A stretch of 5,948 bases of DNA, from IMG/VR virus record IMGVR_UViG_2579778745_000009. The stretch is one strand, 5' to 3'. The position numbers and the translations under genes are program-made. The notes under the pieces were generated by a model. The model saw only the letters and a list, made by a program, of their open reading frames with translations, ran no database searches and was not told the origin of the DNA. Below are positions 1-5,948 of the stretch, piece by piece (within the stretch, counting starts at the first letter, position 1; each line of letters starts with the position of its first letter). This stretch comes from a virus. Its lineage: Duplodnaviria > Heunggongvirae > Uroviricota > Caudoviricetes.

Positions 1-1
1 G

Positions 2-754
2 AAAGGGATAAGTGAAATCGCTGGCTATTATCCCAGAGTTATATCAGATGATTTGTTTTACGCTGTACAGGAAATTCGGTTGGCACCTTTTGGTATTAGC
101 AATAGTAGCAAGAATCCTATGCTAATAAATCTACTTCGAACAGTTATGAAGTGTGAGGCTTGTGGTAATACCATGATTGTTCATGCGGTATCTGGAAGTT
201 TGCATGGCTATTATGTTTGTCCGATGAGAAGATTACATCGATGTGACAGGCCATCAATAAAAAGAGATTTGGTTGATTATAATATCATTAATGAATTGCT
301 TTTTAATTGTAGCAAAATTCAACCAGTTGAAAACAAGAAAGATGCTAATGAAACTTTAGAGTTAAAAATTATTGAGCTTCAGATGAAAATTAATAATTTA
401 ATCGTTGCATTGTCTGTCGCGCCTGAAGTTACCGCTATAGCAGAGAAAATAAGACTATTAGATAAGGAATTACGAAGGGCTTCGGTATCATTGAAAACTT
501 TGAAGAGTAAAGGTGTAAATTCATTCAGTGATTTTTATGCTATTGACTTAACCAGTAAAAATGGACGAGAGTTATGCCGTACACTTGCCTATAAAACATT
601 CGAAAAAATCATAATTAATACGGATAATAAAACCTGTGATATCTATTTTATGAATGGCATTGTTTTTAAACACTATCCTTTAATGAAAGTAATATCCGCC
701 CAGCAGGCGATAAGTGCTCTCAAATATATGGTTGATGGTGAGATTTATTTCTAA
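2..754 (+). CDS. ybcK: Large serine recombinase, C-terminal part; gene continues upstream of the window
   Basis: Frame 2 is open from nt 2 to the TAA at 752-754; the track ORF 53..754 is only its TTG-initiated tail. The translation has a four-Cys zinc ribbon (CEACGNT...YYVCPMRRLHRC) followed by a long predicted coiled coil (ELKIIELQMKINNLIVAL...KELRRASVSLKTLKS), the typical C-terminal architecture of large serine recombinases. Consistent with DLP12 YbcK as I recall it. Confidence 0.8.
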   Translation, partial: KGISEIAGYYPRVISDDLFYAVQEIRLAPFGISNSSKNPMLINLLRTVMKCEACGNTMIVHAVSGSLHGYYVCPMRRLHRCDRPSIKRDLVDYNIINELLFNCSKIQPVENKKDANETLELKIIELQMKINNLIVALSVAPEVTAIAEKIRLLDKELRRASVSLKTLKSKGVNSFSDFYAIDLTSKNGRELCRTLAYKTFEKIIINTDNKTCDIYFMNGIVFKHYPLMKVISAQQAISALKYMVDGEIYF

Positions 755-1135
755 ATAATGATCTCGGATTTTAAGTTATGCTATGGTGATAAAGTGCAAG
801 ACAGAATTAATTATCTTTGACGAAACTTAATGGGTAATTACTTTGTTTGCTCCCACAAGCGAGTTTTGTACGGCTGTATTGGGGTAGTAAATGAGCTATA
901 CAATCTTAATCATTTGTTAGGTGAGAACTCTTGGTCGCAGATTCAAATACTGAAAATACGTGACAAATTATTATGAGCAAAATGGTGTATGTCACGTATT
1001 TTGAATGGTAGGTTAAAAAATAACACCGACTTTCGTAGGTATTACTAATAATAAAGCAGAGTTTTTAGATAGTATCAATGTGCTTTGTGTATATTGTGGC
1101 AAATAATTGGGTTGGGGGTACAATTGTGATTGCTT

Positions 1136-1165
1136 TTGCATAAACATTGCGCCTTTATGCATAAT
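1136..1165 (+). promoter_or_regulatory. Candidate sigma70 promoter for ybcL-ybcM, overlapped by an 8-bp inverted repeat (possible operator)
   Basis: TTGCAT at 1136-1141, 18-bp spacer, CATAAT at 1160-1165, about 55 bp upstream of the ybcL ATG. The inverted repeat TGCATAAA (1137-1144) / TTTATGCA (1154-1161) spans the -35 and -10 elements. Motif reading only. Confidence 0.3.
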
Positions 1166-1218
1166 GAGATAAAGGAATATCAAATAAAATAACGATAGGT
1201 CATAACAAAGAGGTTTTT

Positions 1219-1770
1219 ATGAAAACACTTATCGTTTCAACTGTATTGGCATTCATAACATTTTCTGCGCAGGCTGCAGCATTTCAGGTCACTAGTAATG
1301 AAATAAAAACAGGAGAGCAACTTACAACGTCTCATGTCTTTTCTGGATTTGGGTGTGAAGGTGGTAATACATCGCCCTCATTAACCTGGTCTGGTGTTCC
1401 TGAAGGTACCAAAAGCTTTGCCGTAACTGTATATGATCCAGATGCACCTACAGGCAGTGGTTGGTGGCATTGGACTGTTGTTAATATTCCAGCAACAATA
1501 ACATATTTGCCCGTTGATGCAGGGAGACGTGATGGAACAAAACTGCCGACTGGTGCTGTTCAAGGCCGAAATGATTTTGGCTATGCTGGGTTTGGTGGCG
1601 CATGTCCTCCTAAAGGAGATAAACCACATCATTACCAGTTTAAAGTATGGGCTCTAAAAACTGAAAAGATTCCTGTAGATTCTAACTCCAGCGGAGCGTT
1701 AGTTGGTTATATGCTTAATGCTAATAAAATCGCAACCGCTGAGATAACACCAGTTTATGAGATAAAGTAG
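1219..1770 (+). CDS. ybcL: Secreted PEBP/RKIP-family protein (YbcL/YbhB family)
   Basis: 183-aa ORF with an AGAGG ribosome-binding site upstream of the ATG. N-terminal Sec signal peptide MKTLIVSTVLAFITFSAQA|AAF. Contains the PEBP-family motifs YDPDAPTG and GDKPHHYQF. Matches E. coli YbcL as I recall it. Confidence 0.9.
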   Translation: MKTLIVSTVLAFITFSAQAAAFQVTSNEIKTGEQLTTSHVFSGFGCEGGNTSPSLTWSGVPEGTKSFAVTVYDPDAPTGSGWWHWTVVNIPATITYLPVDAGRRDGTKLPTGAVQGRNDFGYAGFGGACPPKGDKPHHYQFKVWALKTEKIPVDSNSSGALVGYMLNANKIATAEITPVYEIK

Positions 1771-1779
1771 GGTGAGAGT

Positions 1780-2577
1780 ATGCTGGCAAGAGGTAAGACT
1801 AACTTAAAGATCGAAGAAATACGGATGCATAAACATCATGAGATTCATAGGGTTAAGCCTCTTATGCCAGCTTTGTGTCGTATCCGTCAGGGAAAGAAAG
1901 TTATCAATTGGGAGACGCATACTTTAACTGTTGATAATAATCAAATAATATTATTTCCTTGTGGTTATGAATTTTATATTGAGAATTATCCTGAAGCAGG
2001 GCTTTATCTTGCAGAAATGCTTTACTTACCCATTGATTTAATTGAGAGTTTCCAAAAACTTTATACGGTAACTGATCAAATACGTAACAAAACAAGTTTC
2101 TTTTTACCTCAGAATCCTGAGTTAATATATTGTTGGGAGCAACTAAAAACATCTGTTTCCCGAGGCTTCTCAACTAAAATTCAGGAGCACTTAGCAATGG
2201 GCGTTCTACTTTCGTTAGGAGTGAATCATGTTAATCATTTACTTTTATCATATAGTAAACAATCATTGATAAGTCGTTGTTATAACCTGCTGCTATCCGA
2301 ACCCGGCACAAAATGGACAGCAAACAAGGTTGCTCGATATCTCTACATTTCTGTTTCTACATTACATCGCCGTCTAGCAAGCGAGGGGGTAAGTTTCCAA
2401 AGTATACTGGACGATGTGAGGTTAAATAATGCGTTGTCTGCTATACAAACGACGGTAAAACCTATAAGCGAGATTGCCAGAGAAAATGGTTATAAGTGTC
2501 CTTCTCGTTTTACTGAAAGATTTCATAATCGTTTTAATATAACACCAAGAGAGATAAGAAAAGCTTCCAGAGAGTAA
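1780..2577 (+). CDS. ybcM: AraC/XylS-family transcriptional regulator
   Basis: 265-aa ORF beginning 9 bp after the ybcL stop with a GGTGAGAG ribosome-binding site. The C-terminal ~100 aa form a typical AraC-type double helix-turn-helix ([17 protein letters not shown]...[33 protein letters not shown]). AT-rich like ybcL. Confidence 0.85.
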
Positions 2578-2641: not shown

Positions 2642-2670
2642 GTCACCGGAGCCTGAACAACTCCGGTGAC
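2642..2670 (+). other. Perfect 10-bp stem / 9-nt loop hairpin: ybcM terminator, or 5'-leader structure/operator for the nin operon
   Basis: GTCACCGGAG (2642-2651) and CTCCGGTGAC (2661-2670) are perfect reverse complements. Followed by TTCTGCGC, a weak U-tract. Lies 65 bp after the ybcM stop and 24 bp before the ylcH ATG, at the AT-rich to GC-rich transition. Confidence 0.35.
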
Positions 2671-3247: not shown

Positions 3248-3417
3248 TGGCTACACCGCTTATTCGTGTCATGAACGGACACATCTACAGAGTATCAAAT
3301 CGTCGTAAGCGTAAGCCTGAGCTGAAGCCATCCGAAATACCAACACTGCTCGGATATACCGCTAGCCTGGTTGATAAAAAATGGTTGCGACTGGCAGCAA
3401 GGAGGAATCATGGCTGA
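3247..3417 (+). CDS. ninE: NinE-family small phage protein (56 aa)
   Basis: ATG at 3247 overlaps the ybcN TAA by 1 nt (TAATG), with AGGAGG upstream. Translates to [56 protein letters not shown]. Not in the ORF track because of its size. Confidence 0.75.
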   Translation: MATPLIRVMNGHIYRVSNRRKRKPELKPSEIPTLLGYTASLVDKKWLRLAARRNHG

Positions 3418-3700
3418 TTTGAGAAAAGCAGCGCGTGGTCGGGAATGCCAGGTAAGAATCCCTGGCGTATGTAATGGCAATTCTGAAACGTCTGTACTGG
3501 CACATATCCGGCTGGCTGGATTGTGCGGTACCGGTATCAAACCGCCAGACCTGATTGCCACCATTGCATGTTCTGCCTGCCACGACGAAATCGACCGCCG
3601 CACACATTTTGTCGATGCTGCATATGCAAAAGAATGCGCGCTGGAAGGTATGGCGAGAACACAGGTTATCTGGCTGAAAGAGGGGGTTATTAAGGCGTGA
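3410..3700 (+). CDS. ybcO: YbcO-family protein (DUF1364, as I recall), Cys/His-rich putative metal-dependent nuclease
   Basis: ATG at 3410 preceded by AGGAGG, and overlapping the ninE stop by 8 nt. 96 aa with Cys at positions 13, 21, 39, 55 and 58 plus His 59 (..[23 protein letters not shown]..). The track ORF start at 3371 is a spurious upstream TTG extension. Confidence 0.85.
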
Positions 3701-4059
3701 ATACCTACAGTATCACATTACCCTGGCCTCCGAGCAATAATCGCTATTACCGCCATAATCGCGGGCGCACGCACGTCAGTGCAGAGGGGCAGGCATACCG
3801 CGATAACGTCGCCCGAATCATTAAAAGCGCAATGCTGGATATCGGCCTGGCTATGCCTGTGAAAATCCGCATTGAGTGCCACATGCCGGATCGCCGTCGC
3901 CGTGACCTGGATAATCTGCAAAAAGCCGCTTTTGACGCACTCACTAAAGCAGGTTTCTGGCTGGATGATGCTCAGGTCGTTGATTACCGCGTTGTGAAGA
4001 TGCCTGTTACCAAAGGTGGGAGGCTGGAACTGACCATCACCGAAATGGGGAATGAATGA
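3697..4059 (+). CDS. rusA: RusA Holliday-junction resolvase
   Basis: 120-aa ORF with a GTG start overlapping the ybcO stop (GTGA). Sequence [37 protein letters not shown]...[30 protein letters not shown] matches E. coli RusA as I recall it. Confidence 0.9.
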
Positions 4060-4196
4060 TGTTTGAGTTTAATATAGCAGAACTTCTTCGCCACCGCTGG
4101 GGGCGTCTGCGCTTATATCGTTTCCCCGGTTCTGTTTTGACCGATTACCGAATACTGAAGAATTACGCCAAAACCCTGACAGGAGCAGGAGTATGA
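4056..4196 (+). CDS. ylcG: Small phage protein (46 aa)
   Basis: ATG at 4056 overlaps the rusA stop (ATGA). Translates to [46 protein letters not shown], ending at the TGA 4194-4196. Below the track size cutoff. Position matches DLP12 ylcG. Confidence 0.55.
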
Positions 4197-4281
4197 AGTC
4201 AGAGATAACAATCAACTAATACTGTTTTATTGATTTTTGCTTGTAATTGGCGTTCTGGTCTGATTTTTGTGGAGTAAGTTG

Positions 4282-4665
4282 ATGCGTGATATTCAGATGG
4301 TTCTTGAGCGTTGGGGAGCGTGGGCGGCTAATAATCATGAAGATGTGACCTGGTCGTCCATTGCCGCCGGTTTTAAGGGATTAATTCCTTCAAAAGTAAA
4401 ATCTCGCCCGCAATGTTGTGACGATGACGCGATGATCATTTGCGGGTGCATGGCCCGTCTGAAAAAGAACAACAGCGATTTGCACGATTTATTAGTAGAT
4501 TATTATGTAGTTGGTATGACATTCATGTCACTGGCAGGTAAGCATTGCTGCTCTGATGGTTATATCGGGAAAAGGTTACAGAAGGCTGAGGGCATAATTG
4601 AAGGGATGTTAATGGCATTAGATATCCGGTTAGAGATGGATATCGTTGTTAATAACTCTAATTAA
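4282..4665 (+). CDS. quuD: Late-gene antiterminator Q homolog
   Basis: 127-aa ORF from the ATG at 4282 with GGAG seven nt upstream. The track's TTG at 4267 is a less likely start. Cys-rich segments ([25 protein letters not shown]) are compatible with a zinc-binding Q-type antiterminator. Sits immediately after the nin genes, as Q does in lambdoid phages. Confidence 0.85.
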
Positions 4666-4687
4666 TACGCCAATTATTTACTAAAAG

Positions 4688-4716
4688 TTATTAAAAATGG
4701 GGCGTTGAAACGCCCC
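4688..4716 (-). terminator. Intrinsic terminator oriented for the minus strand (porin transcript)
   Basis: Stem GGGGCG (4699-4704) / CGCCCC (4711-4716) with loop TTGAAA. On the minus strand the stem is followed by AUUUUUAAUAA (complement of 4688-4698). On the plus strand it is followed by CAAAAATAAAGGG, with no U-tract. Confidence 0.4.
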
Positions 4717-4756
4717 CAAAAATAAAGGGTAATATATAACAGAAGGTTTGTATAGT

Positions 4757-4804
4757 TAGAAGCAAGGTTGTGCTTCTAAAGGAAGTGGCTTGAGGGAGCC
4801 ACTT
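4757..4804. repeat. Two tandem perfect 8-bp-stem hairpins
   Basis: TAGAAGCA (4757-4764) pairs with TGCTTCTA (4771-4778). AAGTGGCT (4783-4790) pairs with AGCCACTT (4797-4804). Neither is followed by a U-tract on either strand. Confidence 0.4.
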
Positions 4805-5886: not shown

Positions 5887-5948
5887 GGTGATGCTGCCAA
5901 CTTACTGATTTAGTGTATGATGGTGTTTTTGAGGTGCTCCAGTGGCTT
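5887..5948 (+). mobile_element. IS1 insertion sequence, left end (IRL), partial; continues beyond the window
   Basis: 5887-5948 reads GGTGATGCTGCCAACTTACTGATTTAGTGTATGATGGTGTTTTTGAGGTGCTCCAGTGGCTT, which matches the IS1 left terminal inverted repeat and leader as I remember them, with the insA GTG start at IS1 position 56. Confidence 0.85.
5942..5948 (+). CDS. insA: IS1 InsA, first two codons only (GTG GCT ...); the rest is outside the window
   Basis: The GTG at 5942 corresponds to the insA start (InsA begins MASVSISCPSC..., GTG GCT TCT GTT in IS1). Only 7 nt are in the window. Confidence 0.5.

Follow-up and report, generated by a model that had tools for sequence, protein, structure and literature searches.

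The window analysed here, i.e., the whole 5,948-nucleotide stretch of the viral record IMGVR_UViG_2579778745_000009, carries two tandem genes, ybcL and ybcM, which are separated by 9 nt (1771–1779) and preceded by the ybcK-ybcL intergenic spacer (Table 1). It is the same locus as the ybcLM operon of prophage DLP12 in E. coli K-12 (b0545–b0546), which has already been described (Serre 2001; Han 2010; Gao 2021). Gene order is equal in the window and in K-12 from ybcK to quuD, YbcM is 100% identical, and YbcL differs only by I94V. The two versions diverge at position 1142 within the distal box discussed below (A in the window, G in K-12), and an IS1-like end cuts the porin gene of the window at 5887, while in K-12 an IS5 lies at a different place. 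The K-12 locus was reportedly also described by Lau (2012, 2014).

Table 1. Features of the ybcL-ybcM region in window coordinates; negative positions are relative to the start site at 1197.
Feature	Position	Strand	Description
Candidate third YbcM-type box, inverted	1084–1094	-	−113 to −103; reverse complement ATATACACAAA; 8.1 bits, weak
Consensus-like sigma-70 promoter, GTGGCA-17-TACAAT	1096–1124	+	scan match 9/12
YbcM ChIP-exo interval	1118–1151		U00096.2 570015–570048; −79 to −46; signal/noise 357 (Gao 2021)
Distal YbcM-type box, TTTTGCATAAA	1134–1144	+	−63 to −53; includes left repeat arm 1137–1144; 13.5 bits with the family PWM
Proximal YbcM-type box, TTTATGCATAAT	1154–1165	+	−43 to −32; includes right repeat arm 1154–1161; 12.9 bits
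−35 slot, TAATGA	1162–1167	+	2/6 vs. TTGACA; 17-bp spacing to the −10; position deduced from −10 and start site
−10 hexamer, TAAAAT	1185–1190	+	5/6 match; 7 nt upstream of the start site
ybcLM start site (A)	1197	+	Cappable-seq TSS, U00096.2 570094; RRS 4.9; log2 enrichment 3.28
Shine-Dalgarno of ybcL, AAGAGG	1208–1213	+	5 nt ahead of the ATG; by eye
ybcL	1219–1770	+	183 aa; periplasmic PEBP/RKIP-family protein; predicted signal peptide, residues 1–19
Start site internal to ybcL	1513	+	Cappable-seq TSS 570410; RRS 5.55; could transcribe ybcM alone
ybcM	1780–2577	+	265 aa; AraC/XylS-family regulator of the ToxT/Rns structural type
GC-rich 10-bp inverted repeat/hairpin	2642–2670	+	after ybcM, before ylcH and ybcN (ninB)

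The YbcL and YbcM proteins

The PEBP homology of YbcL proposed in the initial annotation is borne out by a profile match spanning the whole domain (Pfam PBP, PF01161; E 7.3e-42, residues 44–180), by the NCBIfam equivalog PRK09818 (399.8 bits, cut-off 277) and by the YbhB/YbcL subfamily model TIGR00481 (189.5 bits, cut-off 57.75). The PEBP fold has been solved for YbcL itself (PDB 1FUX; E 2e-112, residues 20–183 covered), and the structure of YbhB (1FJJ) is matched at E 1e-49. The N-terminus, MKTLIVSTVLAFITFSAQA, is hydrophobic and has AQA at its end; cleavage after AQA fits the crystallised chain, which begins at residue 20. One residue is said, in papers by Lau, to distinguish suppressive from non-suppressive YbcL. 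A published review places YbcL in the periplasm and states that YbcL variants of uropathogenic strains suppress neutrophil migration. A reading of the locus as anti-phage defence was dropped, as no PADLOC match at E ≤ 0.01 was obtained for YbcL, YbcM or the C-terminal part of YbcK.

The assignment of the second gene, 9 nt downstream, to the AraC family holds as well: residues 185–261 of YbcM match Pfam HTH_18 (PF12833) above the cut-off at E 9.5e-17, and PF00165 is matched at 29.1 bits (cut-off 26.6). An AlphaFold2 model (pLDDT 80.6) places seven helices in residues 163–264 and eight strands in residues 10–82. Pfam, the model and Foldseek concur on a C-terminal double helix-turn-helix of AraC/XylS type, for which the DNA-binding domain of GadX (3MKL) yields TM-scores of 0.82–0.89 on target. 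The model and Foldseek likewise reveal the N-terminal cupin-like beta-sandwich of this family, with matches of that domain to the regulatory domains of ExsA, AraC and RhaR and to full-length ToxT and Rns; the Pfam profile ExsA_N stays below its cut-off (20.5 vs. 27). With the entire protein as query, Foldseek ranks full-length Rns, ToxT and CsvR highest (E about 1e-13); these share with YbcM the order of beta-sandwich followed by double helix-turn-helix and, in the case of Rns, the length of 265 aa. Sequence identity to these regulators is just 14–17%, and the TM-scores are 0.45–0.49 because the domain orientation differs. R75 of the fatty-acid pocket of Rns has no counterpart in YbcM (L75) when residues are compared by number, i.e., not by structural alignment. 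Cysteines C33, C167 and C240 of YbcM are invariant. Autoregulation is frequent among regulators of the ToxT/Rns/CsvR type, as is action on AT-rich DNA of horizontal origin.

Start sites and repeated boxes upstream of ybcL

Transcription starts were taken from a published Cappable-seq list for MG1655 grown unstressed in M9 glucose, with the mapping anchored on the ybcL ATG (570893 in U00096 v3, NC_000913.3) and on a v2-to-v3 shift which we take to be 777, in agreement with a check on ucpA; the resulting window positions could be 1–2 nt off. The list contains no plus-strand start from U00096.2 568538 until 570094, so that A1197 is the only plus-strand start between ybcK and ybcL. The promoter implied by this start combines a weak −35 slot with a usable −10 (2/6 and 5/6 matches), as is found in class II AraC/XylS promoters, and it was missed by a consensus scan, though its start is experimentally mapped. 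We infer activator dependence from the weakness of the −35 slot; at the same time, the low-strength start seen in unstressed M9-glucose cells suggests that some activity may not need induction. A supplementary list of activator-free in vitro starts (ROSE) has no entry for the ybcL region.

Two other promoter placements fared less well. The hexamers proposed in the initial annotation, TTGCAT (1136; 3/6) and CATAAT (1160; 5/6), form a pair below the scan threshold and imply a start at ~1172, at odds with the mapped start at 1197; they were discarded, and the ybcL promoter sits about 25 bases downstream of that placement. The GTGGCA-17-TACAAT match corresponds to a constitutive RpoD promoter proposed from genomic SELEX, together with an H-NS site, in the ybcK-ybcL spacer (Shimada 2014). 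It was abandoned as the main promoter, since Cappable-seq reports no start near about 1131, the position expected from it, and it may represent a minor or in vitro promoter. Between ybcL and ybcM, the same study has an entry ‘Internal Promoter’ (Shimada 2014), and Cappable-seq maps a start within ybcL at 1513. The possibility that spacer or leader holds a structured RNA was dropped after an Rfam search (E ≤ 1) yielded a single chance match far under the gathering score. The hairpin downstream of ybcM, which the phage 82 record X92588 labels ‘possible regulator-binding site’, has an RNA fold z of −3.9 and lacks a U tract after it.

The initial annotation also drew attention to an 8-bp inverted repeat, TGCATAAA (1137–1144) and TTTATGCA (1154–1161), said to overlap both promoter hexamers. 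The repeat is present, and can be extended to 11 nt at 91%, but it neither exceeds chance expectation nor is conserved, and relative to the mapped start its arms fall at −60 to −53 and −43 to −36, clear of the −10. In first-order Markov shuffles of the 464-bp spacer (33% GC), perfect inverted repeats of at least 8 bp with a spacer of at most 20 nt arise in 23.7% of cases, and the same spacer contains a much stronger 13-bp perfect inverted repeat (953–965/990–1002). The exact 60-bp allele of the window, with A1142, occurs in 44 of 5,426 complete E. coli genomes; a mismatched allele occurs in 626 genomes, of which the rows sampled carry one mismatch. G1142 in K-12 MG1655 yields TGCATGAA (7/8 arm match), and the common fli-island allele, the commonest in E. 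coli, carries TGCGCGAT and matches at about 4/8. The perfect 8/8 repeat hinges on a derived G-to-A change at 1142. On the combined evidence of shuffles, E. coli alleles and the cross-genus comparison below, the palindrome was dropped as a significant feature.

A different arrangement emerged when the window was compared with eleven further ybcL-ybcM loci, drawn from nine other genera plus two other allele types of E. coli, namely two direct repeats of a family consensus, ATTTGCACGAT, 21 bp apart, followed by a −10-like hexamer 19 nt past the proximal copy. A box occupies the proximal position in 12/12 loci, and in all of these a TAnnnT hexamer (TAAAAT, TAGAAT, TACAAT or TAACCT) lies 19 nt past it. 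With a leave-one-out PWM built on proximal boxes, nine of the 12 loci have their best second site on the same strand at a distance of exactly 21 bp upstream, and the site at this distance ranked second or third in two more; as the consensus was derived from the loci that also served as the test, independent checks come only from the 21-bp spacing and from how far the −10 lies from the box. In an unbiased search for self-repeats, the 21-bp spacing came up in 6 of 13 sequences, one of them that of Limnobaculum, whose repeat is perfect (11/11), with ATTTGCACGAT present twice. In E. coli, the window, K-12 and the fli-island allele share the segment CCTTTATGCATAATGAGAT of the proximal box without change, and 4 bp of this box fall within the −35 slot. 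In Shigella flexneri, both genes have decayed, and the proximal box together with them.

Could the repeat nevertheless act as a palindromic operator across the −35 and −10, bound symmetrically by a dimer? The existence of the repeat, the 5/6 match of CATAAT and the occupancy of the repeat DNA by YbcM (see below) speak for it, as does the E. coli proximal box, TTATGCATAA, which is by itself a perfect 10-bp palindrome. Against this stand the lack of a mapped start near 1172, the 3/6 match of TTGCAT in a pair below threshold, a repeat that some 24% of shuffles reproduce, and a left arm that differs among alleles (A1142 in 44 genomes, G1142 in K-12, TGCGCGAT in the commonest one); furthermore, the boxes of other genera are direct and clearly lack symmetry. 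We regard this model as already largely refuted and its chances as very slim. The 8-bp palindrome would rather be a by-product of two E. coli boxes mirroring each other, because the TGCA box cores (1137–1140 and 1158–1161) are self-complementary and A/T-flanked and because of the G-to-A change at 1142.

The direct-repeat arrangement is familiar from Pm, where XylS acts through two direct repeats with a TGCA box, and from araI1-I2, where the proximal AraC site overlaps the −35. As in those systems, the ybcL promoter features two direct TGCA-containing sites 21 bp apart, with the proximal one reaching a poor −35, and a regulator with a C-terminal double helix-turn-helix. Helically phased sites at ~21 bp, as in class II promoters, are found in 9–11 of the 12 loci. 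The ybcL promoter differs from Pm in that no GGNTA-type second half-box is evident, and its proximal TGCA (−39 to −36) is about one helical turn nearer the start than in Pm. A candidate third box on the opposite strand is suggested by minus-strand PWM matches located 70–71 bp upstream of the proximal box in Escherichia and Phytobacter and 50 bp upstream in Limnobaculum, Plesiomonas and Brenneria, two distances that differ by 21 bp.

YbcM occupancy and models of ybcLM regulation

Binding of a regulator to the repeat DNA, as anticipated in the initial annotation, is confirmed by published ChIP-exo data, in which YbcM occupies the interval 1118–1151, with RNA polymerase also bound there under the ChIP condition; the authors called this autoregulation of the ybcLM operon, in a report that covers binding only (Gao 2021). 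The coordinate version was checked on ucpA and on annotated ybcL in NC_000913.3. The distal box lies inside the interval, which stops 3 bp before the proximal box. The view that YbcM targets are undefined is thus out of date, as 12 ChIP-exo sites have been reported, including ybcL, ubiT, ucpA and lrhA (Gao 2021), along with mutant phenotypes. We found a box within 24 bp in three of the four other peaks checked (ucpA, TTATGCATCAT; ubiT, AAATGCACAAT; lrhA, ATTTGCACTTA) and no box match in the fourth, yhiS; a perfect consensus box within quuD (4478–4488) has no ChIP-exo peak reported. Deletion of ybcM renders cells 8-fold more sensitive to H2O2 (Gao 2021), and a published ybcM::Tn5 mutant is hyper-killed by nalidixic acid. 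At the transcriptome level, a meeting report describes motility genes going down and biofilm genes going up, and a mapSPLiT preprint describes just limited or broad effects of ybcM perturbation.

The ybcLM promoter is probably a YbcM-dependent, positively autoregulated promoter of AraC/XylS class II type. According to this model, ybcL and ybcM would form one operon transcribed by sigma-70 polymerase from A1197; YbcM would bind the two direct-repeat boxes, spaced by 21 bp or two helical turns, and recruit RNA polymerase at the −35 slot, activating its own operon in a positive feedback loop, for which a constitutive start at 1513 within ybcL could supply the first YbcM molecules. The genes, the start site, the occupancy by YbcM and the conserved geometry of repeats and −10 are established by the data; we infer the contacts of YbcM with the boxes, the sign of regulation and the feedback loop. 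The explanation as a whole, i.e., one operon, two boxes, self-activation and an old module carried as phage cargo, appears to us reasonably likely.

The opposite sign is conceivable: box-bound YbcM could block RNA polymerase and keep ybcLM low until a signal releases it. Binding that overlaps the −35 slot could indeed exclude polymerase, the start site is detectable without stress, the candidate upstream inverted box could support an AraC-like repression loop, and the predicted role listed for this AraC-type candidate is ‘Repressor’ (Gao 2021, Supplementary Table 1). However, with a 2/6 match in the −35 slot the promoter seems too weak for repression to be needed, direct repeats 21 bp apart and abutting the −35 constitute the activation geometry of AraC and XylS, and RNA polymerase and YbcM are both at the site under the ChIP condition. 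Moreover, the structural relatives Rns and ToxT are activators. Negative autoregulation is, in our estimate, unlikely.

Positive control could also be indirect, with YbcM displacing H-NS without contacting polymerase, or with another regulator mainly reading the boxes. Many regulators of the ToxT/Rns type counter H-NS. The 33% GC content of the spacer and the H-NS site marked within it (Shimada 2014) are consistent with such anti-silencing, which could act alongside activation instead of replacing it. The strict 21-bp phasing and the fixed 19 nt to the −10 hexamer, maintained across varied flanking composition, point to a stereospecific polymerase contact and argue against anti-silencing, to which we accord a low probability.

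Origin and significance of the module

In every locus with a full-length ybcM relative, ybcL lies directly upstream at a gap of 7–20 nt; these loci are in E. albertii, Phytobacter, strain RIT693, Lelliottia, Limnobaculum, Plesiomonas, two Brenneria, Y. ruckeri and Rahnella. The pair is thus present across Enterobacterales, and in Yersinia ruckeri and Limnobaculum its surroundings are ordinary chromosomal, not phage. In the window, the ybcLM block has the marks of a phage moron: it is inserted between ren and ybcN/ninB, has its own start site, and deviates in GC content (32–46% across 1–2700 vs. 49–55% in the nin region). The block is present with 99.9–100% identity in three complete phages, PhiR70_1, PhiR34_1 and PhiR68_2, with a 100% match of 1050–2700 to PhiR70_1, and a large fraction of E. 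coli genomes has a fliE-emrE-ybcL-ybcM-porin remnant in which the pair is about 91% identical. Thus, ybcLM shares with lambdoid morons the AT-rich composition, own promoter, ren-ninB insertion, and occurrence in complete phages as well as degraded remnants, but differs from them in being also an ordinary chromosomal pair in distant Enterobacterales, which indicates that the phage captured a pre-existing regulated module, not a single gene. On the best reading, the ybcL-ybcM module existed before the prophage, and DLP12-type lambdoid phages carry it as cargo. The notion of a self-contained, regulated, virulence-type prophage module therefore stands as regards a two-gene, self-regulated, lambdoid unit; ‘virulence-type’ is too narrow for a pair that is chromosomal in Y. 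ruckeri and Limnobaculum and distributed across Enterobacterales.

The core of the finding, i.e., the gene pair and YbcM at its own promoter, is already known; as the locus is well annotated and this binding is published, the finding as originally stated adds little. What is added is (i) a corrected promoter map, with the start at 1197, the −10 at 1185–1190 and direct-repeat boxes at −63 to −32 in place of a palindrome, (ii) a cross-genus consensus of two ATTTGCACGAT boxes 21 bp apart as a guide for footprinting, mutagenesis and regulon prediction, and (iii) the recognition that ybcLM is of older date than the prophage and is transported by phages as cargo. Although not a surprise, the corrected promoter model is useful in practice, because the module is tied to survival of oxidative and quinolone stress and because YbcL variants suppress neutrophil migration.

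A broader reading, which we put forward tentatively and consider rather doubtful in its entirety, joins these elements into a chromosomally rooted module captured by phage as a regulatory switch, in which YbcM would sense a small ligand, hydrophobic or anionic and perhaps a fatty acid, and activate its own synthesis through three boxes, the two direct ones at the −35 and a phased inverted one upstream allowing AraC-like looping, with A1142 altering the strength of the distal box. If this reading is true, the regulator brought in by lysogeny would act on host genes too (ubiT, ucpA, lrhA, motility).

The ybcL-ybcM pair and its setting

The 5948 bases come from an E. coli lambdoid prophage of the DLP12 type and correspond to its ren-to-Q part, in which ybcL and ybcM lie as initially annotated, with 9 nt between them (table). 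The window is distinct from K-12 (differing from MG1655 at 40, 1041, 1142, 1498 and many later positions) and is 100% identical to the complete phage PhiR70_1 over 1050-2700. GC content is 32-46% over 1-2700 vs. 49-55% in the nin genes. An IS1-like end interrupts the nmpC/ompD-like porin gene (minus strand) at 5887: its 5' end is missing, and 5887-5948 carries the IS1-like terminus (GGTGATGCTGCCAACTTACTG...). In strain RM14723 an intact copy extends beyond the break point; in K-12 there is instead an IS5 elsewhere, within the 3' part of the gene.

Features of the window and of the ybcL promoter region (negative positions relative to the start at A1197)
Feature	Position	Strand	Remark
ybcK 3' end	1-754		
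Candidate third box	1084-1094	opposite orientation	weak match in window
Distal box TTTTGCATAAA	1134-1144	+	-63 to -53
Proximal box TTTATGCATAAT	1154-1165	+	-43 to -32
-35 slot TAATGA	1162-1167	+	17-bp spacing, 2/6 match
-10 TAAAAT	1185-1190	+	7 nt upstream of A1197
ybcL	1219-1770		
ybcM	1780-2577		
ylcH, ybcN (ninB), ninE, ybcO, rusA, ylcG			between ybcM and quuD
quuD	4282-4665		
Porin gene		minus	last in window

The order ren-emrE-ylcJ-ybcK-ybcL-ybcM-ninB is found in a more intact prophage and three complete phage genomes. A large share of E. coli genomes carries a fliE-emrE-ybcL-ybcM-porin-yedK remnant with ~91% identical ybcLM, from which ybcK is absent and near which no phage genes are annotated; in the ybcLM search the best match fell at 90-95% identity for 3024 genomes, and the sampled rows of this band were mostly of the remnant type, a few being short phage-backbone matches. 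For instance, in E. coli Z0117EC0036 (4952-9043 of locus L001) only emrE, ybcL, ybcM and the porin gene, which are cargo genes of a DLP12-like prophage, are left between fliE and yedK, an arrangement recurring among the sampled ~91% matches.

YbcL matches Pfam PBP (E 7e-42) as well as its NCBIfam equivalog. PDB 1FUX is a structure of YbcL; its chain lacks the typical signal peptide, which ends in AQA, and begins at residue 20. YbcM carries an AraC-type double-HTH domain; it matched none of the NCBIfam equivalogs, and a PDB sequence search retrieved its DNA-binding domain only. An AlphaFold2 model (34 sequences, pLDDT 80.6) predicts a beta domain of eight strands at the N-terminus, joined by a helical linker to a DNA-binding domain of seven helices, with full-length Rns, ToxT and CsvR as top Foldseek matches (E ~1e-13), followed by the AraC, ExsA and RhaR regulatory domains. 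YbcL, YbcM and the C-terminal part of YbcK gave no match to known defence families, and YbcL and YbcM each fall into a PHROG family of unknown function.

An alignment-based search with YbcM relatives yielded 14 loci. Wherever the relative is full-length (E. albertii, Phytobacter, strain RIT693, Lelliottia, Limnobaculum, Plesiomonas, two Brenneria, Yersinia ruckeri and Rahnella), a ybcL homologue directly precedes it at a gap of 7-20 nt, with identities of 65-89% for YbcL and 44-82% for YbcM. The surroundings in Y. ruckeri (hrpA, protease, glyoxalase, sodC, histidine kinase) and Limnobaculum (HAD hydrolase, DUF2501 protein, ABC transporter) are not phage DNA. In Shigella flexneri (L018, ~3250-4780), ybcL carries a frameshift, the decayed ybcM relative shows only 39% identity, and the proximal box is partly deleted with loss of ATGCAT; the module appears to be decaying together, as would fit one functional unit. 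A 400-aa database protein (P0001) containing both PEBP and HTH_18, with 92% identity to YbcM, most likely arose through read-through or a frameshift in gene calling where a short contig spans the small gap between ybcL and ybcM, rather than through a true fusion.

Repeats, boxes and start sites upstream of ybcL

The initial annotation placed a palindrome across the -35 and -10 elements of ybcL. The genes and the 8-bp inverted repeat, TGCATAAA (1137-1144) / TTTATGCA (1154-1161), exist; both the interpretation as a palindrome and the assigned promoter are incorrect. Perfect inverted repeats of at least 8 bp with a spacer of up to 20 nt arise in 24% of Markov shuffles of the 464-bp, 33% GC spacer, and the 1137-1161 repeat is statistically unremarkable. 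Its 8/8 match needs A at 1142, being 7/8 in K-12 with G; the common E. coli allele here is TGCGCGAT, and the exact 60-bp window allele, also found in phage PhiR70_1, occurs in 44 of 5426 complete genomes vs. 626 with a mismatched allele. Since E. albertii and most other genera have G at this position, the A is derived. The G-to-A change creates the perfect palindrome while shifting the distal box away from the cross-genus consensus (G) to match the E. coli proximal box.

Each arm forms the core of one of two direct boxes, which resemble an inverted repeat in the window allele because TGCA is self-complementary and A/T-flanked; the box in other genera (TGCACGAT) is clearly asymmetric. Upstream of every ybcL, two same-strand copies of the box, with the consensus ATTTGCACGAT, lie 21 bp apart, both perfect in Limnobaculum. 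With a PWM built from proximal boxes, the tested lineage being left out, the best other match was located exactly 21 bp upstream on the same strand at 9 of 12 loci and ranked second or third at two more. A TAnnnT hexamer (TAAAAT at seven loci, also TAGAAT, TACAAT and TAACCT) stands exactly 19 nt after the proximal box at all 12. Five lineages have a candidate third box, in opposite orientation, 70-71 or 50 bp upstream of the proximal box, two distances that differ by 21 bp.

Cappable-seq of MG1655 in M9 glucose places a + strand start at U00096.2 570094 (window A1197), with no other + strand start listed for these conditions between 568538 and 570094. The initially proposed TTGCAT (1136) / CATAAT (1160) scores below the consensus scan threshold, and the start expected from it at ~1172 is absent from this list. 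The promoter GTGGCA-17-TACAAT (1096-1124), proposed from genomic SELEX, predicts a start near 1131, which is likewise not in the MG1655 M9 glucose list. The next + strand start, 570410 (window 1513, within ybcL, RRS 5.55), corresponds to an 'internal promoter' that genomic SELEX with RpoD located between ybcL and ybcM; ybcM could be transcribed from it independently of ybcL.

Two further repeats were observed. A 13-bp perfect inverted repeat in the ybcK-ybcL spacer (AAAATACGTGACA / TGTCACGTATTTT, 953-965/990-1002, 24 nt apart) is much stronger than that at 1137-1161 (RNA fold z = -3.3, no U tract after it) and is overlapped by a minus-strand promoter-like match, GTGACA-17-AATAAT (995 to 967). 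For the spacer downstream of ybcM, record X92588 (phage 82) gives putative -35 (2610-2615) and -10 (2633-2638) elements together with a 'possible regulator-binding site'. This site is a GC-rich 10-bp inverted repeat (2642-2670, RNA fold z = -3.9); in lambda, tR2 occupies this position, before ninB.

YbcM binding and the sign of regulation

The view that YbcM's targets are undefined is out of date, since ChIP-exo sites, mutant phenotypes and a transcriptome are already in the literature, where a 2023 paper still describes the regulon as 'never been characterized'. ChIP-exo of YbcM-8myc under paraquat gave 12 sites, and that upstream of 'operon ybcLM' (signal/noise 357) was read by its authors as autoregulation. 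On H2O2 exposure, survival of a ybcM deletion is 8-fold lower than that of wild type; nalidixic acid, mitomycin C and peroxide hyper-kill ybcM::Tn5, which the cloned gene complements; and a meeting report gives biofilm genes up and motility genes down. YbcM C33, C167 and C240 (1876-1878, 2278-2280, 2497-2499) are invariant in 34 relatives, C118 nearly so, and may bear on the oxidative-stress phenotype described. In uropathogenic strains, YbcL suppresses neutrophil migration; laboratory variants do not, owing to a single residue change.

The ChIP-exo coordinates are those of U00096.2, as checked on ucpA, where only the v2-to-v3 shift brings the site into the upstream spacer. With this shift, which we take to be 777 bp at the locus, and the ybcL ATG at 570893 in v3, the interval 570015-570048 becomes window 1118-1151, which contains the distal box and ends 3 bp short of the proximal one. 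Three of four other sites checked, ucpA (L005, TTATGCATCAT), ubiT (L020, AAATGCACAAT) and lrhA (L022, ATTTGCACTTA), show a box match 4-24 bp beyond the interval, in each case towards higher coordinates; none was found at yhiS. The matches adjoining these sites support the box as the YbcM recognition element. Across ybcL, ucpA, ubiT and lrhA, the best match lies 3-24 bp past the higher-coordinate edge, which suggests that the published intervals are systematically offset, with a bias to lower coordinates. Within quuD, 4478-4488 matches the 11-nt consensus perfectly (~0.003 expected in the window); for K-12, whose sequence is identical at this spot, no YbcM ChIP-exo peak has been reported there.

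The ybcL boxes are like those of XylS at Pm in being two phased direct repeats, the proximal one overlapping a poor -35 (here by 4 bp). AraC at araI has the same arrangement, with phased direct repeats and the proximal one over a poor -35. At Pm, XylS uses two 15-bp direct repeats with a TGCA box, and the ChIP-exo study found RNAP together with YbcM at the ybcL site. From this geometry and co-occurrence we favour positive autoregulation, in which YbcM on the two direct boxes would activate its own operon and the internal start at 1513 would supply basal YbcM. Repression of ybcLM by YbcM is a real alternative, and a table entry predicting 'Repressor' is the literature's only statement on sign. 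Alongside the favoured activation, anti-silencing may contribute; H-NS is reported on the ybcK-ybcL spacer.

Overall, the core biology of ybcLM is already published, and this analysis makes modest additions to it in the form of a corrected promoter map and a cross-genus box consensus.
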